DNA of 42,795 nucleotides from the IMG/VR virus record IMGVR_UViG_2526164634_000009; one strand, 5' to 3'. Source of the DNA: a virus (Duplodnaviria > Heunggongvirae > Uroviricota > Caudoviricetes). The notes under the pieces were generated by a model, which saw only the letters and a program-made list of their open reading frames with translations, did not search any database and was not told the origin of the DNA. Positions 1 to 42,795 of this stretch are shown piece after piece. Position 1 is the stretch's first letter; every line of letters starts with the position of its first letter. Both the position numbers and the translations under genes were made by a program.

Positions 1-267
1 GCTGATGATTCAGGAAAGTGGATGTTTAAGGATGGAGCTGTAGTTAAACGGATTTATACAGCAGACGAACAGCAACAACAGGCCGAATCACAAAAGGCCG
101 TATTGCTTTCCGAAGCTGAATCAGTCATCCAGCCGCTGGAACGCGCTGTCAGGCTGAATATGGCAACAGACGAGGAACGCACACGACTGGAAGCATGGGA
201 ACGCTACAGTGTTCTGGTCAGCCGTGTGGATACGGCAAATCCTGAATGGCCACAAAAGCCTGAATAA
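1..267 (+). CDS. Tail fibre assembly protein, alternative copy (Mu U'-like), 5' end outside window
   Basis: Frame open from position 1; C-terminal sequence [13 protein letters not shown]...EWPQKPE parallels the minus-strand Tfa at 296-829 ([13 protein letters not shown]...FPEQPE); opposite orientation as in invertible tail-fibre segments. Confidence 0.7.
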
Positions 268-272
268 AAATT

Positions 273-292
273 AAGGCCCGCTATCGGGCCTT
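273..292. terminator. Hairpin between convergent Tfa genes (AAGGCCCG-CTAT-CGGGCCTT), likely bidirectional terminator
   Basis: Perfect 8-bp stem, 4-nt loop, T-rich tract on minus strand after stem. Confidence 0.5.
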
Positions 293-295
293 GTC

Positions 296-829
296 TCATT
301 CAGGTTGTTCGGGAAATGTTACTGGCAGGCTGGAGGTGTCTGTAGATTCGACTTTCTGCGCATAGAGCATCCACTCAGTTAATTTTTGTTTATTCTCGTC
401 GGAAATGATGCCCAGCCGTAGCTGTGAGTCCCATAGCTGGGTTTTATCCCTGACAAGTTGCAACAGGCTTTGCTTTTCATTCTCTGCCTGCTGCCTCTGT
501 TCCTCCTCGGTATAAGTTCGCTTTATCACTACGCCATCTTTGAACATCCATTTACCCGAAATATCAGCCCGGCGATTTGCTGTAATATCAGGAACCTCAA
601 CGACGCTTGCGCCTTCTGGATTAATTGCTGAAACATCCTTTTCAATACAAATAATACCGTTGTTGTGGTCATAGACCATTTTCAACGTATCAGGCTGAAA
701 GTTCTTTTGTTCCTCATACCAGTTTTTCCCATCCTCTGTATAAAGCCATTTGATGTTAAATTGTTTCGTTAGCTGGTATTGCTCTTTTGTTTTAGGGTTG
801 CCAGCAGTAATATTTTTTAAGTGCATCAT
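296..829 (-). CDS. U: Tail fibre assembly protein (Mu U / Tfa family)
   Basis: 177-aa ORF directly downstream of tail-fibre gene; conserved Tfa C-terminal region. Confidence 0.8.
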
Positions 830-831
830 AA

Positions 832-2292
832 TTAAATACTCCCCGCGTTATACCACGTTCCATTAATGCAATACTGAATTGGCCTTGCCTGAGTTGTATC
901 AATTAATTCATCACGGTTTCCGTTAACTGAACCCGTAACGACATAACCTGACCTGTCAGACCAGCCGGGACCATTCCATGTCTGAACAGATGACAGACCG
1001 CCAAGGCGAATACCTGTAATAAACCTTGAGTTACATTCTGCCTGCGTATATGCTCCAACATCTCCCGCAGAGGGTTTGCGGGTTGTGGTGTAAAACTCTG
1101 ACCAGTCAGCTTCAAAGCCATAACCATCTCGCGCTGAACGATAATAAATACCGCCGTTCTTATAATTCACACGGAACTGAACCGCCGGGCAACTCCCCGC
1201 ATTCATATTAAAGTGAAGAATCAATGTTGACGCTCCACTAATAGTCGCATTATAAACGCCGCTATTTGAGTTCCATCCAACAGCTTTGTCATTTCCAACA
1301 GTGCTTCCTGTCTGCCCTAAAGCAAATGCAGGCTGCTGGTTTTTCGTGTTGTAGTCTCTTCGCCAGCCAGGAGCATAAGCATCACCATGATTAATATAAG
1401 TGAATTGAGCGTTAGTAATTCCGCCACCGCTGGACATGCTCGGGGTGGTTACACGGATGGTCATGGCACCTTTATTACCCATAACCTCAATAACGCAACC
1501 TGCAAGATGAATAGTTCCACAGCCAGTATCGGTAATAATTTTATTATTGCCGTATGACCATGAACATTTGCACATCCAGTATGGGTGATTGAATGCCCCT
1601 TGAGAATCCAGCCATTCAATCAATTGTGCCGTCGTCCAGTTTCCTGCACCTGTGCTAATAGCACCATGAAAAGAGCGGCAAGCACCTATTGTTTGCGTAA
1701 ATTTATCTTTGTTTGGAATATCTGCGCCGTTCTGGTTTTTCTGTAATGCGCCAGAAGCCTGATTTACCGTTTCCTGTAAACCGACGTTTTGGATAAACAG
1801 CGGCTTATTGGGAATATCTGCTCCGTTCCGGTCTTTTGCCAGACGAGCATTGGCATTATCCATCGCAATTTTCACCGCTTTTGCGGTGGCTGCCAACGTT
1901 TCACTGGGGCTGTCAGTGGCACTGGTTAGCTGAACGAGTCCTTTTTTGTTCAGGCTGGCATCATAGATATCCAGATTTTCACGTGCTGTACGCTGTGCTG
2001 ATGCCCCGGCAGTTTTAATTTCGCTGAGGTTATTTTTTATCAGCAGCGCGTTATTGCTCATAATGGCTTTAATGGACAGTGCAAGCTGGTTTAATTTTGT
2101 TTTATCCGGTTGAATACCGGCTTCTTCCAGCGTGTTTAATAACTCCGCCTGAACAATATTAAACCAGTCCATGCCGGGCCATGTGATAACATTATTCCCG
2201 TCACCTTCTGAAAACCAGCGAACGATAGCACTACGCTGGGCGGATACGGGCGGCATGACGGTTACGCCGCTGTCGTTATCAATATAAAACAT
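832..2292 (-). CDS. S: Tail fibre protein (Mu S-like; constant N-terminal part 2292-~1797, variable C-terminal part inside invertible segment)
   Basis: 486-aa ORF, Gly/Asn/Thr-rich C-terminal region typical of fibre tips, position after baseplate genes, gix-like site within ORF. Confidence 0.8.
1771..1796. other. gix/hix-like crossover site for a Gin/Hin/Pin/Cin-family serine invertase
   Basis: TTCCTGTAAACCGACGTTTTGGATAA: imperfect 26-bp dyad with AAACC / GGTTT half-site cores, matching remembered gix consensus at all but about one position. Confidence 0.6.
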
Positions 2293-2834
2293 TAGTTATC
2301 TCCGTCATGGTAAACAAATTTATAAATCTGATGCGCGGGTTTATATTTCTCCAGTAAACATTCCAGCGCACCCGATTCATAAACACGTAACGGCGTCAGG
2401 ACATTATCCAGCACCGTTGCGTTGCGATAATTTTTAATACCGTAAATATTGACCTGCGTAACCCACTGGCTTTCTGTGGAATCCGTCAGCCTGACGGTAA
2501 AACCGTACTGCGCAGCCAGCCATTCATAAAAGCGCCGACTCAGATTGCCGGTCATACGCATTTTATTCGCGGCAGCCCGCTGGCGTTCGGACAGGGTGCC
2601 GTTTTCGCTTGTACAGTCCGGCAACCCCAGAAATGATTCCCACTCCCCCAGATACCAGCGGGATGTGGACGGGAAACGCTCCCGCAGCATTTGCCGCGCA
2701 TCATCCGCCGCACTGGCAATCACGTCACTGATGGCCTGCGCCAGCGCAGATAATTTGCTGTCGGGGCTTTTATTCCAGGCAAGCCCTGACGGCAGTAATT
2801 GCAGAAAGGCCGTCTGATAGGGTGTTACAGCCAT
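2292..2834 (-). CDS. Baseplate/tail protein (Mu gp48-like, DUF2313-type)
   Basis: 180-aa ORF between baseplate J-like gene and tail fibre; family assigned from memory of Mu gp48 / YmfQ-like proteins. Confidence 0.55.
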   Translation of the reverse strand: MAVTPYQTAFLQLLPSGLAWNKSPDSKLSALAQAISDVIASAADDARQMLRERFPSTSRWYLGEWESFLGLPDCTSENGTLSERQRAAANKMRMTGNLSRRFYEWLAAQYGFTVRLTDSTESQWVTQVNIYGIKNYRNATVLDNVLTPLRVYESGALECLLEKYKPAHQIYKFVYHDGDN

Positions 2835-3907
2835 TCAATTGTCCCCGGTGTTAACAGTTCCGTATTCTCCGAACGCTGGATCTCTGTCGGGAAACGCACT
2901 TCAAAATCATCCAGACCGGTAACACCTGCCACCGCACGGATAATACGGGAGGTGGCAAGTGCGCCGCCCGGCGTCACCTCATTAAAAAACATGGTATTAA
3001 TGGCGTGGGTAATAGCCTGTTTCAGTTCGGCTGTCTTCGGTGATATATAAATCCGTGGATTTACCGGCTTTGCCTTTGGCGCAAATACAGTGACATTTAC
3101 ACCGTCAGGCTGTCCGACAATCAGACCGGTGATCGGGTCAGTATGACCGGCGATATAATCCGCCACGCGTTCCACGTCTGCCGGTTGTGGAAAAATATTG
3201 CTCCGGTTATCCATAACAAACGTCACCCCGACTGTGCCACCGCCTTTCCATGTCGGAAAACACCAGGCACGGGTAACGCCGCTGACTTCACGTGCCCAGC
3301 GGACGTAATCAAACTGATTACCGCCGAACGGAGGATACTGGACACGATATTCCAGCCGTGACAGCAGCTCCGCTGCACTCTCAATATCAGCTCCACCGGA
3401 AAACCCTTTTACAGTGATGGCATCGGAAACAACACAGGCAACCGGGGTGATCAACGTTAAAAGGGTATTCTCACCGGTATTTCCTGCCTCACCGGCAGCC
3501 AGTGCGGTAACGGTAATTTCCGTCGTTCCTGCACGGTCAATCACAATGGCATCAGCCAGGCTGTAAACCACACCATCAGCACGCTGCCAGCGTGTACCGG
3601 CAGGAATGGTGGTCGCTGCCGATGTGGTGACAGTCAGCGGGCCGCTGGCGGCTGTCGCCTGTTTGCGGCGCACCCCCCAGAACCGGCAGTGCTCCAGCAA
3701 CTCATCTTCATCTGCTGTCGACGGGATAATCTGCCGTCCAACCCATGAAATATGCTCGTGACAACCGGCAGCAAGGCCCGCCTGAGCATAAGCAATGGCA
3801 CTCAGCGTTTTTTCACGGGCCTGAGGCCAGCTACCCGGCAGGCGCTGTTCAATATTCTGTTCTGTACGGGCAATCAGCGATGATAATGTCGGTGGTGAAT
3901 AAGCCAT
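2825..3907 (-). CDS. Baseplate J-like protein (Mu gp47-like)
   Basis: 360-aa ORF, position and size match baseplate J family. Confidence 0.7.
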   Translation of the reverse strand: MAYSPPTLSSLIARTEQNIEQRLPGSWPQAREKTLSAIAYAQAGLAAGCHEHISWVGRQIIPSTADEDELLEHCRFWGVRRKQATAASGPLTVTTSAATTIPAGTRWQRADGVVYSLADAIVIDRAGTTEITVTALAAGEAGNTGENTLLTLITPVACVVSDAITVKGFSGGADIESAAELLSRLEYRVQYPPFGGNQFDYVRWAREVSGVTRAWCFPTWKGGGTVGVTFVMDNRSNIFPQPADVERVADYIAGHTDPITGLIVGQPDGVNVTVFAPKAKPVNPRIYISPKTAELKQAITHAINTMFFNEVTPGGALATSRIIRAVAGVTGLDDFEVRFPTEIQRSENTELLTPGTIEWL

Positions 3908-4345
3908 TTAAACCCCGTTAAATGCTGCTTTAAACTCATAAGGAATAACGGAACCATCCGGTAATGTCAGTGCAATGTAGAGGTATAACCAGCCCTGATG
4001 TAACTGTTCCGCCCTGACGTTAATCGCACTTACCCGGCCCGCTGTTTTCAGCCATTCCAGCGCCTCTTCGGCATACCCTCTGGCGCGTTCCAGCGTATCC
4101 GGTGTGGCTTTTTCACGTGATAACAGCCACAACCGCGAACCGATGGGGCGGTCGCGGTAACTGTCACCCCACCATCCACGGCGATCATCTGAACCATCCG
4201 GCAGCGTGTCAGAATCCAGCGAGCGCCGGTCGGTAAACAGGGAGATTGTCACATCGGTTGTCAGGCTGTCGTCGGTCAGCATATCAATGCCATCCTGTGC
4301 AATATCGCCGCGTCCGTTCGTCCAGATAATGGCTAAATCGGTCAT
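3908..4345 (-). CDS. Baseplate protein (Mu gp46-like, gp25/GPW-type)
   Basis: 145-aa ORF in baseplate cluster. Confidence 0.6.
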   Translation of the reverse strand: MTDLAIIWTNGRGDIAQDGIDMLTDDSLTTDVTISLFTDRRSLDSDTLPDGSDDRRGWWGDSYRDRPIGSRLWLLSREKATPDTLERARGYAEEALEWLKTAGRVSAINVRAEQLHQGWLYLYIALTLPDGSVIPYEFKAAFNGV

Positions 4346-4935
4346 TGCATTGGCCCCGTGGTTCCGCCGCTATCGCCACGGTGGATATGCTTATCCGTCG
4401 ATTTGCCATTGATGATGGCATCCGGGGCAGTAATATTGCTGTCGAACTGGCTTTTACCTTTAACGCCCAGACCTTTCTGGATCTCAACGTCGCCGGTAAA
4501 CGTGGTTCTGGGTGTGTCAACGGTCATACTTTCATCAGCGTAAACCTCAACCGTTTTACAGGTAATGATGCAGCGTCCGTCCTTTGTCAGCCTGATACGA
4601 TGCCCCTCGTGGTGGTAAATGCCAGCATCACCCGGTTCAAGATTTGTCGGGCGGTAGCGGCGGTCTTCCACCACAACGGCAATCCCCTGATCACGTTGTG
4701 CACCCACACAGGCAATCAGCGCCTCTGCGCCCGGCAGAGGAACGCTGAAATGCCCGTAATTTTGCAGGCGCTCCACTTCATCAGATTCCTCATCATCCAG
4801 CAGACCAACCTGCAGGTTCTGAACCTTTCGTCCGTCGTTAATCACGTTAACAACGGCACGCGCAAGCATCAGGCGCACACGACGCATCAGCGGCATCAGC
4901 AGGCGGTTCATGGCGGAATCATTTACTCTTTCCAC
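4342..4935 (-). CDS. Baseplate assembly/spike protein (Mu gp45-like, gpV-type)
   Basis: 197-aa ORF in conserved position. Confidence 0.65.
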   Translation of the reverse strand: MERVNDSAMNRLLMPLMRRVRLMLARAVVNVINDGRKVQNLQVGLLDDEESDEVERLQNYGHFSVPLPGAEALIACVGAQRDQGIAVVVEDRRYRPTNLEPGDAGIYHHEGHRIRLTKDGRCIITCKTVEVYADESMTVDTPRTTFTGDVEIQKGLGVKGKSQFDSNITAPDAIINGKSTDKHIHRGDSGGTTGPMQ

Positions 4936-6062
4936 GGCGGCGTTTTCTCCGGGTGTCTGCGATAATAATCTTCAACCAGCGCATCAATACCGCCGTTACT
5001 GTCGCCGCCTTTCCTGTTTTTACGGTCGCTTTCAACCGGCACCAGAAAGCCTTCGCGTGGTGCAAGGCTGACGCGGGTTTTCAGCCCGTCCTGGTCATTC
5101 AGTATCAGGGTGACTTTGCTGACCAGTAATTCCGTGGTTTTGATGGCATATTTCGAGGCATCAATAGTGACCAGCAGGTTCGGCATCCAGAGTTGCCCGT
5201 CCTTGCGAGTCCATCCGTCAATTTCTGCCTCAAAGGTGATGGATTTTGCCAGTCTGCGGCGTTGCTCACGCAGGGCGCGGGCCTGTGCATCCTTCGCCGT
5301 AATCTTGCTGTCAGCAATGATGATCATCGGTCTGTAACGGGTCACATCACTGTCAGTGGCGGTCCCTTTCCGGGAGACGATACTTTTCGCATCAATATCA
5401 TCACCCTCAGCACCATTTGCGCGGGCATACCCCTTGACGGTGTATTCGCTGAACCGGTCGCGGAAGTCTTCCTCAAAATCCAGCGTCAGCAGATTTTCTC
5501 CGAGAACCAGCTCATCAGTGGCTGTGCTGGCAGCCCGGCTGAATACCAGCTCTCCGGCGGCATTGCTGGTCATCAGTACACCGCGTGCGCGGGAGGCACG
5601 CACCAGCGCCTCATAAACGGTTTCTGAATGGTCCAGCGTGAAGCCGGGAAAAGCTGCCGAACTTTCCTTATCGGAAAGCTCCCAGCGAACGGTAACGCCA
5701 TAAGGAGCGCACAGGTCACGCGCAATCTGCTCCAGTGTGCGTTTTTTCCACTGTCCGCCACTGTAAACGGCAGCACAGTCAATCAGGTCAGCCGTTTTGT
5801 CACGTCCGGCGACAGTGATTTTCATACTGTCAGCGGTCATCTGGCGTCGCCGTGAATCGATATAACCGGTGCAGACAATCTGCCCCTCGATTTCGAGCGT
5901 GAACTTCTTCCCCGGAGCCAGCCCGGATAAATCCGTGCCCGGTGGCACGTTCACCCCCAGCTCAAAATATCCGGCTACGGATTCAATCGAGCGGGTGACA
6001 GAGACTGACGTCCAGCCGGTAAAAAGCCTGCCATCCGTTCGCAGCGTGACGGTATTACTCAT
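4923..6062 (-). CDS. P: Tail/baseplate hub protein (Mu P / late-control-D-like)
   Basis: 379-aa ORF immediately downstream of N-like gene. Confidence 0.7.
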
Positions 6063-6843
6063 TAATCACCTCAATACTGACACCACCGGGAACAAACAAC
6101 GGGTTGCTGATACCGTTCCTGCGGGCCAGCCGTTGCCAGTTCCGGCTGTTTCCTGTGTAACGGTACAGGGCCACCATTGCAGGCATCGTCTCCGGCAGGC
6201 GGTGCGTTTCACTGCCCGCCAGTTGCAGCCCGCGTTTTTCCAGGTCGGCAACAACCAGCAGACGCAGTTGCGTAAGCTGAACGCTGTCTGTCGAAAAGCC
6301 CTGCTCAGATGCCGTCAGAATGACGGTATCCAGTGCAGCCCCCAGCATGGCGGCTGTTTTTCCGATATCGGACACACTTTCAAATACCGGGGGCGTGGCT
6401 GTACCACTGTCTGAAAAGGATACCTGTGAAAAACCGCCGTCCGGGGTTATGGCAGTTAACTGTAACTGTCCCTGTGTGACGGTAGCGGATGTGCTGCTGG
6501 CCCCGATGGCTGTGCCGGTTGTGGTGGACGGGGCATCCAGTACAGGTGCACGGGCGGCATTATCCATCCGGCGACTGAAATCCAGTGCCGCAGTCAGTGC
6601 CTGGCTGGCAGCTTCTGCCCGGTATGTCTGCGCCGCTGCCAGCATGACGTAGTTCAGTGTGGCAATATTTTTTTCTGCAACCGGACTGTTGTACGAGGTT
6701 GTGATTGTCCCCTGTCTGCCTGCGGTGGCAGCATGGCGACGTTCGAATCGCTGCGCCAGACGGTTCCATGTGGAAAATGCTGTCCGGGTATCGCATAACG
6801 ATGAAAGTAAGCGTGCAGCAAGAACCGTATTGACGGGGATGTG

Positions 6844-8382
6844 TTATTCAGTCGGCAGTGCTACGCGCCAGGGGAGCAGTTCGCCGACCCGGTTTATCGG
6901 CCAGTCGGCTATGACGTCAAGGACATAGCGGAGGTAGCTTTCTGGCTCCACTCCGTTCAGTTTGCACGTCCCGATCAGGCTGTACAGCAGCGCTCCCCGC
7001 TCTCCTCCATGATCCGAACCGAAGAACAGGTAGTTTTTGCGGCCCAGACTGACCATCCGCAACGCATTTTCAGCGATGTTATTGTCCGCCTCAGCCCAGC
7101 CATCATCTGCATAGTACGTCAGCGCCGGCCACTGGTTCAGGGCGTATGCGAACGCTTTCGCCAGTTCTGAGTGTCGCGACAGGGTTTTCATCTTTTCACG
7201 CAGCCAGCTTTCCAGGGATTTCAGCAGCGGTTTCGTTTTCAACTGACGTTCGGCAAGGCGCTGCTCCGCCGTCATTCCCCTTATCTCTGCCTCGATGGCG
7301 TACAGTTCGCCGATCCGTTTCAGCGCTTCCTCCGTCAGGGCTGACGGGGTGCGAACGTGCACATCGTGGATTTTACGGCGGGCGTGAGCCCAACAGGCGG
7401 CTTCCGTTATCCGGCCATCCCGGTACAGCTCGTTGAACCCGGCGTATGCATCCGCCTGCAGTACACCACTGAACCCCGCAAGATGGGTCTGCGGATGGAT
7501 GCCTTTTCTGTCCGGGCTGTAAGCGAACAACACCGCCGGCGCCAGCGTTGACCCGGCGTTACGGTCGTCACGAACGTAGGTCCATAACCGCCCGGTCTTC
7601 GTTTTCTTATTGCCTGGCAACAGCACCGGGACAGGCGTGTCATCAGCATGGAGCTTACCGTCAGTCAGCACATAGTCCTGAAGCGCTTCTTCCAGCGGTG
7701 ACAGTAGCCGGCAGCATGCATCCACCCAGCCCGACAGCAGTGAACGACTCAGCTCCACGCCCTGGCGGCCGTACATTTCAGACTGGCGGTACAGCGGGGT
7801 GTGCTCTGCATACTTTGAGATCAGCACGCGGGCCAGCAGCCCCGGTCCTGCGATACCCCGCTCGATGGGCCGTGAAGGCGCGGGGGCCTGCACGATGGCA
7901 TCGCACTGAGTACAGGCATGCTTTTCACGTACAGTCCGGATAACCCGGAAGGCGCTGCGCATCAACTCCAGCTGTTCGGCGGCATCCTCACCCAGATAGC
8001 TCAGTGAGCCTCCACATTCCGGGCAGCATGATGCTGCCGGCAGCAGCCGTTTTTCATCGCGGGGGAGTGATTCGGGGAACGGTTTGCGGGTGCGGGTTTG
8101 ACGCAGCGGGCGCTGCACGGCCGGGTCGTCAACCCGACCGGTAAGGGTATCACTTTCTTTCTGAAGTGCCTTCAGGTCAGCTTCCATCTGTGCGATACGA
8201 CGGGAGACTTTTTCGGAGCGGCTGCCGAAGTTCATCCGGCGCAGCTTATCCAGCTGTGCCTGCAGATGGTCTATTTCGCGTTCACGCTCGTTCAGCTTTT
8301 CCAGCAGGGCACGGTTCAGCGCCTCCTGTTCGGCAAGGAGACGTTTCAGTGCATTGATATCGTCAGGAAGTGAGCTGCTCAT
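6844..8382 (-). CDS. tnpC: IS66-family transposase TnpC
   Basis: 512 aa; N-terminal coiled-coil, CxxC...CxxC zinc-finger segment, DDE-type core. Confidence 0.9.
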
Positions 8383-8430
8383 ACCGGGTATATTACCAGG
8401 CTCATTCAGCGTCGACCAGGATAAAGAGGC

Positions 8431-8778
8431 TTACAACATAGTCAGGGACGTAAGCAGTCTTTTAGGCTGCCGCCAGTCGATACCTTCCAGCAGCATCGCC
8501 AGCTGTGCCGGTGTGAGGAACACTTTGCCATCCCGGGCTGACGGCCAGGCGAAGCGGCCGCGCTCCAGCCGTTTGGTCAGCAGACACAGTCCATCGCCGG
8601 TAGACCAGAGGAGCTTTACCTGACTGCCATTACGCCCACGGAAGATAAAAACGTGACCTGACATCGGATCGTCTTTCAGCGTCGTCTGCACCTTTGCCGC
8701 CAGGCCGTTGAAGCCGTTTCTCATATCGGTGATGCCAGCGACCAGCCAGATCTTTGTCCCTGATGGTAATGGGATCAA
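8431..8778 (-). CDS. tnpB: IS66-family accessory protein TnpB (Orf2)
   Basis: 115 aa, MIPLPSGTKIWLVAGITDMRNGFNGLAAKV motif typical of IS66 Orf2. Confidence 0.9.
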   Translation of the reverse strand: MIPLPSGTKIWLVAGITDMRNGFNGLAAKVQTTLKDDPMSGHVFIFRGRNGSQVKLLWSTGDGLCLLTKRLERGRFAWPSARDGKVFLTPAQLAMLLEGIDWRQPKRLLTSLTML

Positions 8779-9179
8779 CGTTTGAGCTCCCGTATCAGCA
8801 GGTTCAGGATATTTTCGCTGATGGCACCATTCAGACGGAGTGATCCGTGCCGGAACGTCACTTCACAGCTGATATTGAGTGATTCAGGTGTCGCAGCAGC
8901 TACAGGTTGTGACCGGGGGGAGGTTGTAGGGACAACATCTTCGGCATCAAGTGTTATCGGGAGCAGCTCAGGCACGTTGTTTTCTGTTGTTGAAGGAGGA
9001 CGTAGTTTTCCTTCGCGCCAGTACTGGCGCCACTTGAACAGCAAATTATCGTTGATCCCATGCTCACGAGCGAGTTGCGCTACGGAGATCTCTGGTCGAT
9101 GCGAGAGTTCAACCATTTTGATTTTGAACTCAACGGGATAATTAGGGCTTTTTTTACGCACTGCGGTTAATGATTTCAT
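8775..9179 (-). CDS. tnpA: IS66-family accessory protein TnpA (Orf1), HTH
   Basis: 134 aa, overlaps tnpB start by 4 nt as in IS66 elements. Confidence 0.85.
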   Translation of the reverse strand: MKSLTAVRKKSPNYPVEFKIKMVELSHRPEISVAQLAREHGINDNLLFKWRQYWREGKLRPPSTTENNVPELLPITLDAEDVVPTTSPRSQPVAAATPESLNISCEVTFRHGSLRLNGAISENILNLLIRELKR

Positions 9180-10008
9180 GGATAGCGTCCACCATATTTG
9201 GTGTCCACTATTCTCTCAGGAATTTCAGGATCTGCCAGACGGTGCTGAGACGACGCTTACCGATGAAACGCCGGACAGCGCCCCCATCAGCGAGGAGGCC
9301 AGCATGGCAGGCTGGTTAATCAGGCTGGTCACAGAGCCTTTCATCGCAGAAAGCGATCCCATCAGACCGCTGACAGTCTGCGTAACCCCCAGATTGTCCA
9401 CCGCATCACTGATATCATCGATGACACCGGTTACAGCTTCCATCACGGCGGTTGCCGCCGCAGTGCCATCTTTTACGGTCTGCCAGACAGAGGACAGCGT
9501 ATCTCCCAGAGAACCGGTTACAGCAACGGCCTGTGCCGGTACGGCTGCACTGGTGTCTGTCTCTGCGTCCGGGGCAGTATCCTGCAACGACGGATAAACG
9601 GTAACGGTGAACGCGTAATAATTCAGTTCATCCGCTTTAGTGCGGCATTCCCATGAATCCACCATGACGTCCACAGTGCCGAAATCAGGATGTACCAGCT
9701 CACCGCTACCCGGAGCATCAAGAGCATCCATCAGCGCACCCGCTTCATCTCTGGCTGTTTCTGCGTTGCTGTTCAGAATGCAGGCGCTGAATGTACGGGA
9801 GCGAAGCTTTTTCCCCAGGTCATTGACGCCGCCGGTATCACGTAACGGGTACTCGCGTTTAACCAGGCGACGTCCGCCAGCCTGTTTTTGCTCCTCGATG
9901 ACGAGAAACGGCACGTTACGGAACGTGCCTTTGCCGGTTGTTTTCCTGCCTCCACCGGTTTTATCCCGGACAGCATTAACGACATTTAAAGCATCTTCAA
10001 ACATGGTT

Positions 10009-32168: not shown

Positions 32169-33225
32169 GGCTTTGTTGAATAAATCAGATTTCGGGTAAG
32201 TCTCCCCCGTAGCGGGTTGTGTTTTCAGGCAATACGCACGCTTTCAGGCATACCTGCTTTCGTCATTTTGTTCAGCGCTCGTACCAGGGCCATAGCCTCT
32301 GCAACCTGACCATCGTAGTCACGCAGTGTCAGTGAACCTCCGAACAGCTGTTTTACCCGGTACATCGCCGTTTCCGCTATCGAGCGACGGTTGTAATCTG
32401 TTGTCCATTTCCACCGCGCATTACTCCCGGTCATTCGCTGATTAGCCACTGCACGGTTACGGTCTGCATATTCACCGGGCCAGTAACCCGCACCTTTTCG
32501 GGGAGGGATAAGGGCGCTGATTTTCTTACGCCGCAGTTCATCGTGACAGAGCCGGGTGTCGTAAGCGCCGTCTGCCGATGCTGCCCTGATTTTTCTGTGA
32601 GTCTGCCGGATAAGACCCGGGAAGGCTTCTGAGTCCGTTACGTTGTTCAGCGACAGGTCTGCACAGATGATTTCATGTGTGTTGCTGTCAACGGCCAGAT
32701 GCAACTTCCGCCAGATACGACGGCGTTCTTTGCCGTGTTTTTTGACTTTCCATTCGCCTTCACCAAAGACCTTCAGCCCGGTGGAATCAATCACCAGATG
32801 CGCGATTTCACCTCGGGTGAACGTTTTGAAACTGACATTAACCGACTTTGCGCGCTTGCTGACACTGGTGTAATCCGGGCAGCGCAACGGAACATTTATC
32901 AGTGTAAAAATGGAATCAATAAAACCCTGTGCAGCCCGCAGGGTCAGCCTGAACACGCGTTTAATGACCAGAACGGTGGTGATGGCGAGATCAGAATAGC
33001 GCTGAGGTCTTCCCCGTGATGAAGGCGTTGCCGACTCATACCAGGCCTGAATAGCTTCATCATCCAGCCAGAAAGTTATGGAGCCACGGTTGATGAGGGC
33101 TTTATTGTAGGTGGGCCAGTTGGTGATTTTGAACTTTTGCTTTGCCACGGAACGGTCTGCGTTGTCGGGAAGATACGTGATCTGATCCTTCAACTCAGCA
33201 AAAGTTCGATTTATTCAACAAAGCC
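32169..33225 (-). mobile_element. IS903-like element (IS5 family), 1057 bp, 9-bp target duplication CTTTAGTAC at 32160-32168 and 33226-33234
   Basis: Perfect 18-bp terminal inverted repeats GGCTTTGTTGAATAAATC, single transposase ORF, identical 9-bp flanking repeats. Confidence 0.9.
32225..33193 (-). CDS. tnp: IS903-type transposase (DDE); true start may be internal
   Basis: ORF contains FKITNWPTYNKALINRGSITFWLDDEAIQAWY region that I recognise as IS903 transposase. Confidence 0.9.
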   Translation of the reverse strand: MKDQITYLPDNADRSVAKQKFKITNWPTYNKALINRGSITFWLDDEAIQAWYESATPSSRGRPQRYSDLAITTVLVIKRVFRLTLRAAQGFIDSIFTLINVPLRCPDYTSVSKRAKSVNVSFKTFTRGEIAHLVIDSTGLKVFGEGEWKVKKHGKERRRIWRKLHLAVDSNTHEIICADLSLNNVTDSEAFPGLIRQTHRKIRAASADGAYDTRLCHDELRRKKISALIPPRKGAGYWPGEYADRNRAVANQRMTGSNARWKWTTDYNRRSIAETAMYRVKQLFGGSLTLRDYDGQVAEAMALVRALNKMTKAGMPESVRIA

Positions 33226-33240
33226 CTTTAGTACACATCG

Positions 33241-33468
33241 TTATCTCCAGATAATCTGGCAACCATTAAGACGGGCCGTCCATACAGAACGGGCCACCCC
33301 GGACTTATGCTCCATAATTCTGACCGCGTTTTTTACCAGTTCCACCGGTGGGTAAGTGATTTCAAGAATCGGACGCGCCACGCCGAGATATGATTCATTT
33401 ACATGACTCCCGCGCGCCTGTAACCAGTTCTGCGCATCCGTTGCCATTTTTATATTTCGGGCCATCAT
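33241..33468 (-). CDS. Small early protein immediately downstream of B (position of Mu kil)
   Basis: 75-aa ORF; position-based only. Confidence 0.4.
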
Positions 33469-33483
33469 AATTTCTTCTCCTTC

Positions 33484-34422
33484 TTAATTACGCAGCAGCG
33501 TTGAAATATCAACGTCCAGGTCTAATTCACGGAAAGCCTGACGCAGATAATCTTCGTTAACACGCTCACCTTTACCGTGAGCCGTCATGGCGGCAAGGCG
33601 AAGTGAATGATTCAGAATGCGAAGCGCACCTGGTTTCTGCGCAATCTGCTGTAATAACTCCAGTTCTTTTTCACCGTTAATCTGCCAGGCATCCGCAATA
33701 GCTTTTACATCGGCTTTTTTGGTTTTATTAATTGCAGTGCGCTTTGCAATACGGGAAAACAGACGGGCAAATTCAACCGTTCTGTTACCCCCCGTCATAT
33801 TTGAATAAACCCGGTGATTTCCCATCAGCACAAGGCCAATACGGGTTGATTCCTGTAACAGGCGGAGTTCTTCCAGAACCTCGGCACCAAGATGATCAGC
33901 TTCGTCGATGATAACCAGCCCCTGTGTACCTTCAAGGCGACGTCGCAGGGCGCGGGAGAGCGGCCCTTTACGGCGTGGTGCGTCATTCATTCCCAGCTCA
34001 AACGCCAGTTCAGTAAGACATTCCAGAACGCTGGCACAGGATGGCGTAATGGTGATCATCCAGACATTGTTATTGGTGCGGCGATATTCACGGGCCGCTT
34101 CGGTTTTACCCACACCAGGATTGCCACATACAACAGCAATACTTTCAGTCAGGCTGGCAAAACGCATACTTGTCCAGATTTGTTTTACCGTCTGCGTTTC
34201 CACAAAGCGGGGCGGCTCAGGTAGTTCTGCAACTGCATGATATTTTTCCAGCCAGCGTTGCAGAATTTGTGAAACACGCTCGTTATCCCCGTTGTACTTA
34301 TCATTGATAAAACTACTGATAGTTCCGGTAGAAAGCCCGCTCTCAAGAGCAATTTGTTTAAAGGTGGTTTCTTCATTTTCTACAAGCGTGCGCAGTTCTG
34401 CGCGAATATCGGAAATATTCAT
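33484..34422 (-). CDS. B: Transposition ATPase B (MuB-like AAA+)
   Basis: 312 aa, Walker A GNPGVGKT, follows A. Confidence 0.85.
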   Translation of the reverse strand: MNISDIRAELRTLVENEETTFKQIALESGLSTGTISSFINDKYNGDNERVSQILQRWLEKYHAVAELPEPPRFVETQTVKQIWTSMRFASLTESIAVVCGNPGVGKTEAAREYRRTNNNVWMITITPSCASVLECLTELAFELGMNDAPRRKGPLSRALRRRLEGTQGLVIIDEADHLGAEVLEELRLLQESTRIGLVLMGNHRVYSNMTGGNRTVEFARLFSRIAKRTAINKTKKADVKAIADAWQINGEKELELLQQIAQKPGALRILNHSLRLAAMTAHGKGERVNEDYLRQAFRELDLDVDISTLLRN

Positions 34423-34460
34423 CTGAATAACCTCGTAATTAAATTTTGTTTAAACGTTAA

Positions 34461-36554
34461 TTAAATGGCTTTTTTACGTCTGTTCTGTTCCAGAATATCC
34501 AGCGAATGATTCAGATATTCATCACGCTCAGTTTCGTATTCATCATCATGCTCTTCCTCACACCTCAACGGCTGAACGGTCACCACATTACCAACAGGGC
34601 GATAAACATTATCCAGCCAGGGTTCTATCGTTTTTTGTTCAATAACCTGAATACCTTCATCCTCAGCATCACGTATTTTTTCCTCAGCACGCTTGCGCAT
34701 TCCTTTAATACGTTGCTGTTGTTTGTGATATTCAGCCGTAACAGGAAAGGCTGCGCGTTTATTGCCGTTCCATATCGCCTCACAGATAAAGCTACCGTCC
34801 TTACGGCGTACCGTAATTCGCTCGGCATCGTGAATGTCATAGCTGATAAGTACCTTGCGACCATGTTCATCACGTAGCTCTGGCGCGTAGTAAATATTGT
34901 TCAGCCACTGGATTTCGCAGCGTCTTACCGGACGCTCCACCATCGGGCGGAACATGTCACGCAGCTCAATATCACTCAGCCACTCAATTTCAGTGTCTTC
35001 TTCCGCTAAGCGTTTTTTTCTGAACTCTGCCGGGCTGTAATGTTTTCCGTTTGGTTTCATCGGCAATTCAGAATGTGGGCGGTTGTTGTACCACTCCACC
35101 CCCTCACGGATAGCCTCAATCAGTTCTGACCAAGACGGCAGCTCGCGCATTGCGGCTTTCTGACGGGCGCTCAGTGGCTTGTCCTGTTGCAGGGCATTAA
35201 ACGCTGAACGCAGATCACGATTAAGTACTCGCAACGATTCCCGGTCAGCCCCCTTGCCGAAATAGGTGCGATACCTCCTTGCTATACGCATCGGTAACGT
35301 CCGGTTCAGGCGCTCAATAATGCCGCGTCCCTGCGGATTTCCCGCAATACCAGTGGGGTGGTTAATCCCCAGGCGGGGCAGAATCCCGACGATCTCTTTA
35401 TCCAGCATATCTGCCGTTTCACCGGAACCATTATCCGAGTAATACAGGAATGGTTTTCCGTGATTGCGAATGCCGTGTTGTATCGCCCCGGCAACAGCGA
35501 ACACGTTCTCCGCAAGATCAAGACTCCAGCCAACCACAAACCGGGTTCCACCGTCGATCACAAACGTAACTTCCGGTGAAAATGGACGCCCGTGAACCGG
35601 ATGCGCACATTTCAGCTTCATACCGTGACCGTCACCAATCCAGACATAATTCACCGGCATAGCTGTCCAGTCGCGGCGGGTGAATCCTTCAAGCTGACGG
35701 TATTCACTGCCGGTAACGCGCCCTTTTTGTTTCACCACTTCCGGCAGTTTTTTCATGGCATACCGGACAACATCATAGGAAGGCATCACCTCCAGCATGT
35801 ATGGTTCGTCCGCATGGCGACGCTGCCAATCAGCGACAAAATCCTCGTATGCTTCTGACATAGGCCTGCCGTTAGCCTGACGATACTGCGCCAGAAATTC
35901 AGGCAGCCAGCTAATTTCTTCCGGTTTTATTTCGTCGCGCTTTCCTGGTGCCAGTAACAGCAATCGTTCTGCGGCATTCTGTGCTTTGTTAAACGCAGCT
36001 ATCCAACGTTTGAGCGTAATTGCGCTCAGAGTTCGCTCTTTCCCTTTACGGGCATTAGCAGTAATGACCAAAGATTCCAGGCGTTCTTCCAGGTTACCCT
36101 GCGCTAACCGCGACACAATAAAACGTATAGCGCTGGCACAACTGAATCCCGGCTCCTGGCTAATTCGTAGAACTTCACAGACAAGAGCAATACGCGCTTC
36201 TGCAACTTTACGTTGATTTTCCGTAAGCGCATTCAGACGCTCTTCTACCAATTGTGGCGAACCGCGATATGCCTCAACAGGCTGTACAACATTTTGTTTG
36301 CGTTCACGCTTTACAGGAGGCTGGGTAGTTATCTCCTGCGGGGCGGTTGCCATCAGTTGAGCTACATGGCGCTCACGTAACGCCCGTTGTGTAACCGGAG
36401 GGAGGCAGTCGATGCTGTATTCAATGGTTTTTGAACCCGCACGTTTGCGCCTGAAATGCTCAGATGAGGCCAGTTTCCTTATGGAATACCGCACCCCTTG
36501 CGCAGTTCCCGGCATACCCGGTAGCCCTACAAGCTCATTAACTGACACAAACAT
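34461..36554 (-). CDS. A: DDE transposase A (MuA-like)
   Basis: 697 aa; C-terminal tail DDEYETERDEYLNHSLDILEQNRRKKAI matches Mu A as remembered, N-terminal DNA-binding region diverged. Confidence 0.9.
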   Translation of the reverse strand: MFVSVNELVGLPGMPGTAQGVRYSIRKLASSEHFRRKRAGSKTIEYSIDCLPPVTQRALRERHVAQLMATAPQEITTQPPVKRERKQNVVQPVEAYRGSPQLVEERLNALTENQRKVAEARIALVCEVLRISQEPGFSCASAIRFIVSRLAQGNLEERLESLVITANARKGKERTLSAITLKRWIAAFNKAQNAAERLLLLAPGKRDEIKPEEISWLPEFLAQYRQANGRPMSEAYEDFVADWQRRHADEPYMLEVMPSYDVVRYAMKKLPEVVKQKGRVTGSEYRQLEGFTRRDWTAMPVNYVWIGDGHGMKLKCAHPVHGRPFSPEVTFVIDGGTRFVVGWSLDLAENVFAVAGAIQHGIRNHGKPFLYYSDNGSGETADMLDKEIVGILPRLGINHPTGIAGNPQGRGIIERLNRTLPMRIARRYRTYFGKGADRESLRVLNRDLRSAFNALQQDKPLSARQKAAMRELPSWSELIEAIREGVEWYNNRPHSELPMKPNGKHYSPAEFRKKRLAEEDTEIEWLSDIELRDMFRPMVERPVRRCEIQWLNNIYYAPELRDEHGRKVLISYDIHDAERITVRRKDGSFICEAIWNGNKRAAFPVTAEYHKQQQRIKGMRKRAEEKIRDAEDEGIQVIEQKTIEPWLDNVYRPVGNVVTVQPLRCEEEHDDEYETERDEYLNHSLDILEQNRRKKAI

Positions 36555-36556
36555 TT

Positions 36557-36793
36557 TTATGCCACCTTACGAGCGTAACGGCTGGGCCAGATCTCCTCCG
36601 GCGCAACACCAATAGCATCAGCAATAATGCGCTCATATTTTGGGCATTTGCGGTACAGGGCATTCTTTAAAGAATCCTGGTTTAAACCGGCTTCAATGGA
36701 CAGAGAGCGTAAAGTAAAACCTTTTACATGCACCGCCGCGACAACATGCGCGGGGTGCCAGTCCTGTTTAACAACTTCATTTATAGACATCAT
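36557..36793 (-). CDS. ner: Ner-like DNA-binding regulator (start taken at internal ATG 36793)
   Basis: C-terminal IIADAIGVAPEEIWPSRY resembles Ner family; AAGGA RBS before internal ATG. Confidence 0.7.
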   Translation of the reverse strand: MMSINEVVKQDWHPAHVVAAVHVKGFTLRSLSIEAGLNQDSLKNALYRKCPKYERIIADAIGVAPEEIWPSRYARKVA

Positions 36794-36973
36794 TCGTTTA
36801 TCCTTAAAAGTTATCTGTGCGGATAACACCGCCGGATAATCTCTGCGGATAAAGTATTGATCCACATGTGGCGCATGTAAAGCAAAAATTTGATTTTCTT
36901 TTGCCTGATGTGGATCATCTGTGTTTTCTATTGAAATTATCCTTTTGTATCAATTAGATAAGAGGAAAGAAAA
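36794..36973. promoter_or_regulatory. Divergent early/repressor promoter-operator region
   Basis: Three CGGATAA repeats 13 bp apart (36818-36852) and inverted repeat TGATCCACAT / ATGTGGATCA (36858-36867, 36909-36918) between divergent ner and c. Confidence 0.5.
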
Positions 36974-37519
36974 ATGGATAAGCTGAAAGGAAAGTCACTT
37001 TCTTTGCCGGAAGTGACAAAAGAAAGTATCCCGGAGCGTTTGAGAGAATTAATTGGAAAAAGAAGTGTAAGGGCTGCTGCGAAAGATTGGGGGTTGTCTT
37101 TTTCTACTTTAAACAATTACCTGACGCGAGGTACTGAACCTTCACTCAGTGTGGCTCGGCAGATAGCTGCAATTGAAGGGGTTACTATCGAATGGATATG
37201 TGGATCACATGATGATTCATATGAGAATCACCCAATTTCAACTAACACGCATAATGAGAATACAAAACTCATTATGAACATCATTAACGCCTTGGATGCA
37301 AAGGATATTGAGCGACTATCTAAGACTCTTGCCCTCAATGGTGCTAAGTATCTGACTCAAATGTTGGAACCCGAAAATCAAGGCTTACTGCGTCTTGAAG
37401 GACGAAAACGTGTCGCCGCGCTGCTATTAGATGATTTACCTGATGAGCGTATCAGAGAGATTTTGGAAGAAATTGAGAGCAGCAAACTCTCAAGTAGTGT
37501 AAAATCGAGAGCGGGCTAG
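36974..37519 (+). CDS. c: Prophage repressor (c-like, HTH)
   Basis: 181 aa, divergent from ner, HTH-like segment near N-terminus. Confidence 0.7.
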   Translation: MDKLKGKSLSLPEVTKESIPERLRELIGKRSVRAAAKDWGLSFSTLNNYLTRGTEPSLSVARQIAAIEGVTIEWICGSHDDSYENHPISTNTHNENTKLIMNIINALDAKDIERLSKTLALNGAKYLTQMLEPENQGLLRLEGRKRVAALLLDDLPDERIREILEEIESSKLSSSVKSRAG

Positions 37520-37583
37520 TTCAATTAGCCCGCAGTGAACAGATTTTGAAGGCATTTAAAATGCTAAAATTGCAGTAACGCGT

Positions 37584-37745
37584 AGTATCAAATATTTTTT
37601 CGTTTTTAGCTTTCTTTGCGATGGTAGTATCAAATCGCATGTTGTGCGCATAACACTGTTTTATGTCATAACTGTTTGTTTTATCCCATCAAATCCCGTT
37701 TAATCCACTTTCCTCCCGGATTTTTCACCAGTATCAAATAATTTA
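37584..37745. repeat. Mu-like left-end attachment region with three AGTATCAAAT repeats (37584, 37626, 37730), candidate transposase-binding sites
   Basis: Spacing 42 and 104 bp mirrors Mu L3-L2-L1; adjacent tract (revcomp AAAAATCCGGGAGGAAAGTGGATTAAACGGGATTTGATGGGAT) resembles remembered Mu left end. Confidence 0.5.
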
Positions 37746-38077
37746 CCTCTCTATACGACTATGAGGAGAAATTGCTTATTGCCAGATGGGAACTGACAGC
37801 AGAACAGGCTGTTACACAGCAGTTAAAAAATGAGGTGTCAAAAGGAAAACTGATTGACACCGGGTTCTGTATTTTTGCCCTCAGTAAGCTGGCAATGGCG
37901 TTATCCAGTACGCTTGATTCCATCCCTTTATCCATGCAGCGACAGTTTCCTGATTTAACACCGCGCCATCTTGACCATCTGAAAACCATTATTGCGAAGG
38001 GGGCAAATCAGTGTGCGCGGGCAGGGGATAAATTACCGGATTTACTCGATGAATATATCAGAGCAACAACTGAATAA
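37742..38077 (+). pseudogene. nu1: Lambda-like terminase small subunit nu1, 3' fragment only (truncated by Mu-like prophage insertion)
   Basis: Frame opens only at 37742 after in-frame TAA; translated C-terminal part resembles lambda Nu1 C-terminus and overlaps A start as in lambda. Confidence 0.7.
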
Positions 38078-39977
38078 TATGATGGCTGCCGTTTCGGTTG
38101 CGCTGCAGCCTCTGGTCAGGGTTGTACCAATGACGGCAGTTGAATGGGCTGATCAAAATTATTATCTGCCTAAAGAATCTTCATATGGTGAGGGAGAATG
38201 GAAAACGCTGCCATTCCAGATCGCCATTATGAACTGTATGGGTAACGACCAGGTTCGCACGGTTAACCTGATTAAATCTGCCCGTGTTGGCTATACAAAG
38301 ATGTTGCTGGGGGTGGTCGGGTATTTTATTGAGCATAAATCCCGAAACAGTCTGCTTTTTCAGCCCACGGATTCTGCCGCTGAAGATTTTATGAAGTCTC
38401 ACGTGGAGGCGACGATTCGGAACGTGCCATGCCTGAAAGACCTTTCCCCATGGCTGGGTCGTAAACATCGTGACAATACTCTCACGCTGAAACGCTTTTC
38501 ATCGGGCGTCGGTTTCTGGTGCCTGGGCGGCGCTGCCGCCAAAAACTACCGTGAAAAATCCGTGGACGTGGTCTGCTATGACGAACTTTCCTCGTTCGAG
38601 CCGGATGTCGAAAAAGAGGGCTCGCCAACCCTGCTGGGGGATAAGCGTATTGAGGGGTCGGTGTGGCCAAAATCCATTCGCGGCTCGACGCCTAAAATCA
38701 AAGGCACCTGCCAGATCGAAAAAGCCGCTAACGAGTCGGCGCATTTTATGCGTTTTTATGTGCCCTGCCCGCACTGTGGGGAGGAGCAGTATCTGAAATT
38801 TGGCGATGAGTCCACGCCTTTTGGGCTTAAATGGGAGAAGGACAGCCCTGAAAGTGTTTTCTACCTCTGTGAACATCATGGCTGCGTGATCCATCAGTCT
38901 GAGCTTGACCAGAGCAACGGGCGGTGGATCTGTGAAAACACGGGCATGTGGACCCGTGACGGTCTGACGTTTTTCAGCGCCCGGGGTGATGAAATTCCGC
39001 CGCCGCGCTCCATCATGTTCCATATCTGGACGGCGTACAGTCCGTTCACCACCTGGGTACAGATTGTCTATGACTGGCTGGATGCACTGAAAGATCCCAA
39101 CGGCCTGAAAACCTTTGTGAACACCACGCTGGGCGAGACCTGGGAAGAGGCCGTGGGCGAAAAACTCGATCACCAGGTACTGATGGATAAGGTGGTGCGT
39201 TACACGGCGGCGGTGCCTGCCCGGGTGGTTTATCTGACGGCGGGCATTGACTCGCAGCGAAACCGTTTTGAGATGTATGTCTGGGGATGGGCTCCGGGAG
39301 AGGAAGCCTTTCTGGTGGATAAAATCATCATTATGGGGCGTCCTGATGAGGAAGAGACGCTGTTACGTGTGGATGCGGCGATCAACAAAAAATACCGCCA
39401 TGCGGATGGCACCGAAATGACTATTTCCCGTGTCTGCTGGGACACCGGGGGGATCGATGGTGAAATTGTTTATCAGAGATCAAAAAAACACGGTGTTTTC
39501 CGGGTGCTGCCGGTAAAAGGCGCATCTGTCTATGGCAAGCCGGTGATCACCATGCCAAAAACCCGCAATCAGCGGGGCGTGTATCTGTGTGAAGTGGGAA
39601 CGGATACCGCAAAAGAAATTCTCTATGCCCGTATGAAAGCCGATCCCACGCCTGCGGATGAAGCCACGTCGTATGCCATCCGTTTTCCTGATGATCCGGA
39701 GATTTTTTCGCAGACAGAGGCGCAGCAACTGGTGGCGGAAGAGCTGGTGGAGAAGTGGGAAAAAGGAAAGATGCGTCTGCTGTGGGATAACAAAAAGCGG
39801 CGTAACGAAGCGCTGGACTGCCTGGTGTATGCCTACGCGGCATTACGTGTGTCCGTGCAACGCTGGCAGCTTGATCTGGCTGTACTGGCAAAATCCCGGG
39901 AAGAAGAGACGACCCGGCCAACCCTGAAAGAACTGGCAGCGAAGCTGTCCGGAGGAGTGAATGGTTACAGTCGCTGA
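38049..39977 (+). CDS. A: Lambda-like terminase large subunit gpA
   Basis: Start at MNISEQQ (38049); conserved terminase blocks including VGYTKMLLGV, GDKRIEGSVWPKSIRGSTPK, WTAYSPFTTWVQIV. Confidence 0.9.
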   Translation: MNISEQQLNNMMAAVSVALQPLVRVVPMTAVEWADQNYYLPKESSYGEGEWKTLPFQIAIMNCMGNDQVRTVNLIKSARVGYTKMLLGVVGYFIEHKSRNSLLFQPTDSAAEDFMKSHVEATIRNVPCLKDLSPWLGRKHRDNTLTLKRFSSGVGFWCLGGAAAKNYREKSVDVVCYDELSSFEPDVEKEGSPTLLGDKRIEGSVWPKSIRGSTPKIKGTCQIEKAANESAHFMRFYVPCPHCGEEQYLKFGDESTPFGLKWEKDSPESVFYLCEHHGCVIHQSELDQSNGRWICENTGMWTRDGLTFFSARGDEIPPPRSIMFHIWTAYSPFTTWVQIVYDWLDALKDPNGLKTFVNTTLGETWEEAVGEKLDHQVLMDKVVRYTAAVPARVVYLTAGIDSQRNRFEMYVWGWAPGEEAFLVDKIIIMGRPDEEETLLRVDAAINKKYRHADGTEMTISRVCWDTGGIDGEIVYQRSKKHGVFRVLPVKGASVYGKPVITMPKTRNQRGVYLCEVGTDTAKEILYARMKADPTPADEATSYAIRFPDDPEIFSQTEAQQLVAEELVEKWEKGKMRLLWDNKKRRNEALDCLVYAYAALRVSVQRWQLDLAVLAKSREEETTRPTLKELAAKLSGGVNGYSR

Positions 39978-40167
39978 ACTGCAGGCGCTGCGTCAGGCGC
40001 GCCTTGATTTATTAACCGGTAAACGGGTGGTGTCTGTCCAGAAAGATGGTCGCAGAATTGAATATACGGCGGCTTCTCTGGATGAGCTTAACCGGGCGAT
40101 CAATGATGCGGAGTCGGTACTGGGGACAACCCGACGTCGCCGTCGTCCGCTGGGAGTGAGGTTATGA
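39961..40167 (+). CDS. W: Head-tail joining protein gpW
   Basis: 68 aa, between A and B. Confidence 0.8.
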   Translation: MVTVAELQALRQARLDLLTGKRVVSVQKDGRRIEYTAASLDELNRAINDAESVLGTTRRRRRPLGVRL

Positions 40168-41756: not shown

Positions 41757-42795
41757 TCTTTCACACATTATTGCCGCAGCATTCAATGAACCGCTGCTTC
41801 TGGAGCCCGCCTATGCGCGGGTTTTCTTTTGCGCGCTCGGGCGCGAGATGGGGGCAGCAAGTCTTTCGGTACCACAACAGCAGGTACAGTTTGATGCTCC
41901 CCGGAATGCTGGCTGAAACGGACGAGTACATGGCCGGAGGTAAACGACCGGCCCGTGTTTACAGGGTGGTGAACGGTATTGCTGTACTGCCGGTGACCGG
42001 CACGCTGGTGCACCGGCTGGGGGGTATGCGGCCATTTTCCGGAATGACAGGCTATGACGGTATTGTCGCCTGTCTTCAGCAGGCAATGGCGGATAGCCAG
42101 GTGCGGGGCGTACTGCTGGACATTGACAGTCCGGGCGGGCAGGCCGCCGGCGCGTTTGACTGCGCTGACATGATTTACCGCCTCCGTCAGCAGAAGCCGG
42201 TCTGGGCACTGTGCAATGACACGGCCTGTTCTGCAGCCATGCTGCTGGCGTCGGCCTGCTCCCGACGGCTGGTTACCCAGACATCCCGTATCGGCTCCAT
42301 TGGCGTGATGATGAGCCATGTCAGCTATGCCGGTCATCTGGCGCAGGCCGGTGTGGATATCACGCTGATTTACTCAGGGGCGCACAAGGTGGATGGCAAT
42401 CAGTTTGAAGCCTTACCGGCAGAGGTTCGCCAGGACATGCAGCAGCGCATTGATGCGGCGCGCCGGATGTTTGCCGAAAAAGTGGCCATGTTTACCGGTC
42501 TGTCTGTTGATGCCGTCACGGGAACAGAGGCCGCCGTTTTTGAAGGTCAGTCCGGCATTGATGCCGGGCTGGCGGATGAATTAGTCAATGCGTCGGATGC
42601 CATCAGTGTGATGGCCACGGCGCTGAACAGTAATGTCAGAGGAGGCACTATGCCGCAATTAACTGCAACGGAAGCCGCCGCGCAGGAGAACCAGCGAGTG
42701 ATGGGGATCCTGACATGCCAGGAAGCGAAAGGACGTGAACAGCTTGCCACGATGCTGGCAGGACAACAGGGCATGAGCGTTGAACAGGCCCGGGC
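41746..42795 (+). CDS. C: Lambda-like head protease/scaffold gpC, 3' end outside window; apparent +1 frame change near 41880-41915
   Basis: N-terminal 56 codons (VRRNLSHIIAAAFNEPLLLEPAYARVFFCAL...) stop at TGA 41914-41916; remainder (RVVNGIAVLPVTGTLV... to window end) is in the +1 frame. Confidence 0.6.

Follow-up and report, generated by a model that had tools for sequence, protein, structure and literature searches.

A probable Gin-type tail-fibre switch, cut by a contig end inside U', in an SfMu-type Mu-like prophage of Escherichia coli

The first 2292 nucleotides of the stretch of DNA analysed here (42,795 nt in all, hereafter the window) very probably constitute the Sc-proximal half of a G segment, the Gin-type switch of an SfMu-type Mu-like prophage. 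In switches of this kind, inversion of a segment of approximately 3 kb exchanges the tail-fibre tip, changing which bacteria the phage infects. The system is already known, comprising the Mu G segment with Gin and gix, a known phage group, and the usual mosaicism of tail fibres. The Mu G segment and Gin are among the founding examples of programmed DNA inversion and host-range switching, and the present case matters little beyond correct annotation. One modest addition is comparative evidence that the variant pair of crossover sites of SfMu-type prophages, termed C15/A21 below after the bases that distinguish them, inverts in nature. The features on which this reading relies are the following:

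1..267, plus strand: 3' part of U', the silent tail-fibre assembly (Tfa) gene belonging to the alternative set, truncated to 88 codons by the contig end
273..292, minus strand: terminator-like GC hairpin followed by a T-run, from a consensus scan; a pattern match only
296..829, minus strand: U-type tail-fibre assembly chaperone gene in the expressed position; 177-aa ORF matching Caudo_TAP (E = 1.8e-37)
832..2292, minus strand: tail-fibre gene S; 486-aa ORF with the Pfam domains Phage_fiber_2 and gp37_C
832..1782, minus strand: Sv, the variable, invertible C-terminal part of S (aa 171-486), now fused to Sc in the continuous ORF 832..2292
1739..1796, no strand assigned: extended inverted-repeat arm of the G segment, with homologous arms in FDAARGOS_1059 and SfMu
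1771..1796, read on the plus strand: gix crossover site on the Sc side, TTCCTGTAAACCGACGTTTTGGATAA, with its central GA at 1783-1784
1785..2292, minus strand: Sc, the constant N-terminal part of S, comprising aa 1-169 and the initial base of codon 170

The sequence at 1771-1796 has the make-up of a Din-type 26-bp crossover site, in which a 2-bp core is flanked by 12-bp half-sites of imperfect symmetry. TTCCTGTAAACCGACGTTTTGGATAA matches the window only once when up to three mismatches are allowed on both strands, and none of 100 dinucleotide-preserving shuffles gave a match to the 26-mer. It differs from Mu gix at a single one of its 26 positions, position 15, where G is replaced by C (window 1785) immediately beside the central GA. 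The Mu record contains the perfect site TTCCTGTAAACCGAGGTTTTGGATAA as two inverted copies, at whose centres the two features annotated as "G-segment boundary" are placed. The native gix core reported in the literature, CTGTAAACCGAGGTTTTGGA, also agrees with the site in the window (PMC5175349). On the coding strand, the ORF runs uninterrupted through the site as F-I-Q-N-V-G-L-Q-E (aa 166-174), with the central dinucleotide supplying the second and third bases of codon 170; the base change turns this codon from CTC (Leu) in Mu into GTC (Val) in the window. Because the core occupies codon 170, Sc is assigned aa 1-169 and Sv aa 171-486.

The site also marks the true boundary between constant and variable sequence, since homology to Mu changes orientation there. 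Positions 1758-4000 of the window are 98.8% identical to phage Mu, while similarity to Mu further left is lost in the present orientation; positions 1-1796 correspond instead to the reverse complement of the gin-proximal S'/U' half of the Mu G segment (positions 3482-1681 of the Mu region compared), with approximately 90.5% identity. In FDAARGOS_1059 and SfMu, the 58 nt homologous to the arm at 1739-1796 are 79% complementary to an arm 3.0 kb away that adjoins gin, and the window is identical to the arms of both relatives over the 66 nt compared. Judged by its sequence, 1771-1796 is the Sc-proximal gix site of a Mu G segment. The preliminary description had located this 26-mer inside the tail-fibre ORF, proposed a boundary between constant and variable parts at that point, and likened it to the sites used by Gin, Hin, Pin and Cin; all of this has stood, the match being exact, unique and in frame within 832-2292 (minus strand), one nucleotide away from Mu gix at an annotated G-segment boundary, with 98.8% identity to Mu on its right and a reverse-complement S'/U' match on its left.

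The surrounding genes follow the Mu-type layout, in which the site lies in frame inside the fibre gene and U is opposed by the 3' part of U'. In the fibre protein, a Phage_fiber_2 repeat at aa 113-153 belongs to Sc and a gp37_C domain at aa 326-419 belongs to Sv. The U-type gene at 296..829 is a homologue of Mu U' and P1 U'. The U' remnant matches Caudo_TAP over profile positions 37-131 of 131 (E = 5e-29), and its counterpart in FDAARGOS_1059 is a full-length tfa gene of 528 bp (4740-5267 of the region compared). Two further proposals made from the sequence are likewise upheld: that two Tfa genes converge at 267/296 as in the Mu G segment, and that the captured orientation fuses the constant part to a variable part. 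Both Tfa genes match Caudo_TAP (E = 5e-29 and 2e-37), Sc, Sv, U and a convergent U' are arranged as in Mu, and ORF 832..2292 crosses the site without a break. U and U' are separated by 28 bp, and within this gap lies the hairpin at 273..292 (minus strand, AAGGCCCGATAGCGGGCCTT then AATTTTTATT), a putative terminator placed where, in the present orientation, the late S-U transcript would end. With the exception of this hairpin, the consensus scan for promoters and terminators gave counts no higher than in shuffled sequence, and promoter-like hits were given no weight. As a separate observation, the peptide NGADIPNK occurs on both sides of gix, with one copy in Sc (about aa 155-162) and a second in Sv some 32 aa further on; a short direct repeat in the DNA (window 1716-1741 and 1811-1837) encodes the two copies.

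The whole window is the complete draft contig AIHD01000025.1 of NCBI assembly GCA_000250275.2, and position 1 is consequently not an arbitrary cut: it is the contig end, which falls inside the U' tfa gene of the G segment. Its relationships identify the element as a Mu/SfMu-like E. coli prophage (Muvirus, SfMu-type) read on the minus strand. Five relatives were compared: the prophages of E. coli FDAARGOS_1059, E. coli O111:H2 12A and E. coli WS1933D, phage Mu (AF083977 / NC_000929), and Shigella phage SfMu (KP010268). Window positions 1-4000 align over their full length with the FDAARGOS_1059 prophage at 97.0% identity and with SfMu at 94.5%. Beyond the G segment, the window is collinear with Mu, D108, SfMu and Mu-like prophages of E. 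coli at 96-100% DNA identity, including gp42-gp48, the tape measure, portal and terminase genes, gam, B and transposase A, so that it holds the collinear Mu gene set, from transposase to baseplate, that places it within Muvirus. Upstream of the fibre gene on the minus strand, Pfam matches to Phage_Mu_Gp48 and Baseplate_J are followed by GP46, Phage_Mu_Gp45 and the rest of the Mu baseplate.

The partner site and gin cannot be read in this strain because the contig ends inside U'. Allowing up to three mismatches, a search of both strands found no second gix site in the window, and the contig stops approximately 1.3 kb short of the place where one is expected; a tblastn search for a Gin homologue in the window (E <= 10) returned chance hits only (E = 0.6-0.8). 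The same 26-mer search and Gin tblastn rule out that these elements sit in another part of the window, such as its far end. In all five relatives an inverted partner site is present, with gin, com and mom behind it, and the GA core of the partner is identical in each. The preliminary description had expected an inverted copy and an invertase gene just upstream of the window; these relatives bear it out. In SfMu-type prophages this partner reads TTATCTAAAACCTCGGTTTACAGGAA. An inverted-repeat scan of FDAARGOS_1059, Mu and SfMu gave a site-to-site distance of 2985-3002 nt, and in the register of FDAARGOS_1059, the closest collinear relative, the partner would lie 1289-1314 bp and gin 1369-1962 bp upstream of window position 1. 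In FDAARGOS_1059, Gin still has the catalytic Ser9, and 7 of the 582 nt of the gene depart from Mu gin. From these relatives we infer that this strain, too, has gin and the partner site. The second Sv, which is present in the relatives, also falls beyond the contig end; it and the prophage end that carries gin, com and mom are to be sought on another contig.

The proposed mechanism is that of Mu. A Gin-type serine invertase, encoded just beyond the far end of the segment, would bind the 26-bp gix in S together with its inverted partner approximately 3 kb away. Cutting at the central GA of both sites, rotation by 180 degrees and rejoining would then flip the segment. For Gin itself, dimers bind the two gix sites and the synapse is a tetramer activated by Fis; double-strand breaks at the cores leave the DNA in phosphoserine linkage, one pair of subunits is rotated by 180 degrees, and the ends are religated (PMC3575834). 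Sc, made up of the first 169 codons of S, would stay fixed along with the late promoter, each orientation fusing Sc in frame to one of two receptor-binding C-terminal parts, Sv or Sv', and bringing in the chaperone gene (U or U') that matches it downstream. The orientation of the contig is that of Mu G(-), with the S'/U'-type set expressed, and the annotated tail-fibre protein of the contig would be only one of two alternative products.

Evidence that such segments flip comes from the prophage family to which the window belongs. The FDAARGOS_1059 and O111:H2 12A prophages lie at different chromosomal positions in different strains, and their flanks are identical over 1500 of 1500 nt on the gin side and 2200 of 2200 nt on the Sc side. 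Their G segments share 58.6% identity as they lie and 99.9% once one of them is flipped, so both orientations occur in this family. Among 5,426 complete E. coli genomes, 12 carry the Sc junction of the window type and 13 carry the alternative one; exact matches over the 61-nt junction, including C15, numbered two for the window type and four for the alternative. Taken together, these junction counts and the flipped prophages are the pattern expected of a reversible switch. The bases at the sites are equally informative. In SfMu-type copies, C15 keeps to the Sc flank and A21 to the gin flank in either orientation, while the inner sequences swap. Compared with the flipped, gin-proximal copy of WS1933D, window 1-1796 differs beyond position 1500 only at 1785 and 1791, the two outer half-site bases. 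These outer variants stay in place and the inner arms last differ at 1761-1762; therefore, exchange is confined to 1763-1784, ending at the core dinucleotide.

Whether the copy in the window is itself active is a separate matter. We infer that this copy still flips; the principal alternative, which we consider unlikely, is that the G segment is genuine and the copy has ceased to invert. Such a loss could possibly have come about because gin or the partner was lost or disrupted, the break in U' then marking an IS or a deletion, or because the C15 change is crippling. The contig does end inside U', and the prophage already carries two IS insertions. Moreover, the authors who described SfMu noted the same 1-bp change beside the crossover bases and raised the possibility that it might slow or abolish inversion (PMC4406740). 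A look-up of the exact S and U proteins returned the contig itself and one 6.1-kb contig of another assembly, ending in U; this exact Sc-Sv fusion is thus recorded in one orientation only, in two independent assemblies, which would also suit a lineage in which the segment is fixed. Against this, the same variant site pair is found both ways round between identical flanks, and the C15 variant is therefore compatible with inversion. These comparisons indicate that the C15/A21 gix pair can invert in nature. The existence of exact-match junctions of both types likewise argues against a block, and the repetition of Tfa genes among prophages offers a mundane reason for an assembly break at U'.

That break bears on a second alternative, namely that the G region here is not a plain two-site switch. 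The contig could end in U' because tfa sequences are repeated, because the culture that was sequenced contained both orientations, or because the DNA is truly rearranged there. In the last case the break could mark, for example, an extra crossover site (as in Min), an IS insertion, or a cassette from a P1-like plasmid, a reading that we regard as very improbable; if it were so, the fibre repertoire would exceed two or the switch would be locked. Finally, the notion that the 26-mer is ordinary coding sequence with a fortuitous likeness to an invertase site draws on its single copy in the window, but it is scarcely tenable beside a 25/26 match to Mu gix at a place homologous to an annotated G-segment boundary, a switch in the orientation of Mu homology at that very site, and shuffles that never yielded a match. 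The two-site Gin-type switch of an SfMu-type prophage is therefore retained as the framework for the comparisons that follow.

With respect to Mu, the window shares the gene order gp47, gp48, S (Sc/gix/Sv), U, U', S', gix, gin, com and mom, the last part of which lies beyond the contig. It also shares the central GA and a constant flank about 98.9% identical over 2.2 kb to the right of the core. The two differ in that the Sc-side site of the window has C instead of G at position 15, with Val instead of Leu at codon 170; in that the variable part of the window is only about 90.6% identical to Mu S'/U' and lies in the G(-)-type arrangement relative to the Mu reference; and in the early/immunity region, which left of Mu coordinate 3227 is not Mu-like at the DNA level. 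SfMu-type prophages are closer. They have the same C15 on the Sc side as the window, with A21 on the gin side in these relatives, and a constant flank of 98.6-99.95% identity (99.95% over 2.2 kb in FDAARGOS_1059 and O111:H2 12A); SfMu and FDAARGOS_1059 also share the orientation of the window. Unlike them, the window has a mosaic Sv, whose closest variable part is that of the flipped WS1933D copy (97.3%), and the prophage carries two IS insertions.

This mosaicism is sharply localized. Relative to FDAARGOS_1059, the G part of the window is 93% identical, compared with 99.95% in the flank. Nearly all the differences, 115 mismatches, fall at 1101-1800, with none at 1-500 and none at 1801-2700. 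The differing stretch, 1101-1714, covers the N-terminal two-thirds of Sv. Its best matches are the flipped E. coli prophage (97.3%) and the P1-like plasmids of E. fergusonii (97.9%), and it has the look of a cassette mosaic formed between Mu-like and P1-like phages; this divergence is ordinary tail-fibre mosaicism. Divergence beginning exactly at gix, as would follow from an exchange of cassettes at the site, was considered and rejected, the mismatches lying at about 1101-1714 and 1715-1800 being identical. The P1/P7 C segment, with its Cin invertase and cix sites, follows the same switch logic, and window 1-1754 is 93.4% identical to the Sv'/U'/U region of P1; P1-like plasmids of E. fergusonii reach 97.9% identity over the same stretch. 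The similarity to P1 nevertheless does not reach the crossover site (query end 1754 or 1775), and the constant part and phage backbone of P1 are unrelated to those of the window.

Beyond Mu and P1, the Din family includes Pin of prophage e14, Hin with its hix sites in Salmonella, and Min of p15B, in all of which a serine invertase acts on 26-bp sites that have a 2-bp core, together with a Fis-dependent enhancer. In Din switches, this Fis-bound recombinational enhancer acts in cis and lies inside the 5' part of the invertase gene; for the prophage in the window it would fall outside the contig. Pin and Min switch tail-fibre ends too, Min being a multi-site system, whereas Hin flips a promoter and not a coding end. 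Pin, Hin and Min sit in host elements different from a Mu-like prophage.

Two insertions bear on what the switch could accomplish in this host. An IS66-family element of approximately 2.4 kb (window ~6807-9253), with ORFs of 134, 115 (97 in another call) and 512 aa matching HTH_Tnp_1, TnpB_IS66 and DDE_Tnp_IS66, splits gene N/gp43 (DNA circularization/baseplate hub), leaving ORFs of 259 aa for the N-terminal and 196 aa for the C-terminal part, with the intact gene of FDAARGOS_1059 aligning on either side. A prophage so interrupted is probably unable to build tails. Relative to Mu, a second insertion of 1057 bp lies at window ~32169-33225, where it separates kil from the early gene that follows (Mu coordinates 4546/4554), and is annotated in matching E. 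coli records as an IS5-like transposase of the IS903B family. The prophage is probably defective. With IS66 in gene N/gp43 and IS903 in the early region, the switch may therefore lack consequence in its host, and even if the segment flips, it may be a switch without phenotype here.

At the other end of the element, the Mu-like left end (window ~37750-37758) abuts a lambdoid prophage, which forms the flank at 37755-42795. This flank is 99.5% identical to the block of terminase, portal and S49 peptidase genes of an uninterrupted relative, and the match starts 187 nt into the small-terminase gene (relative position 1501, CDS 1314-1823). Since it starts inside that gene, the Mu-like element transposed into the terminase gene of another prophage. 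The terminal bases at the left end are unlike the canonical left end of Mu, and the end is placed approximately. Between this end and the second insertion, window ~33227-37750, comprising the N-terminal part of transposase A, ner and the repressor, has no DNA similarity to Mu. The same stretch is 100% identical to the O111:H2 12A and FDAARGOS_1059 prophages, and the early region thus composed points to an immunity type different from that of Mu.
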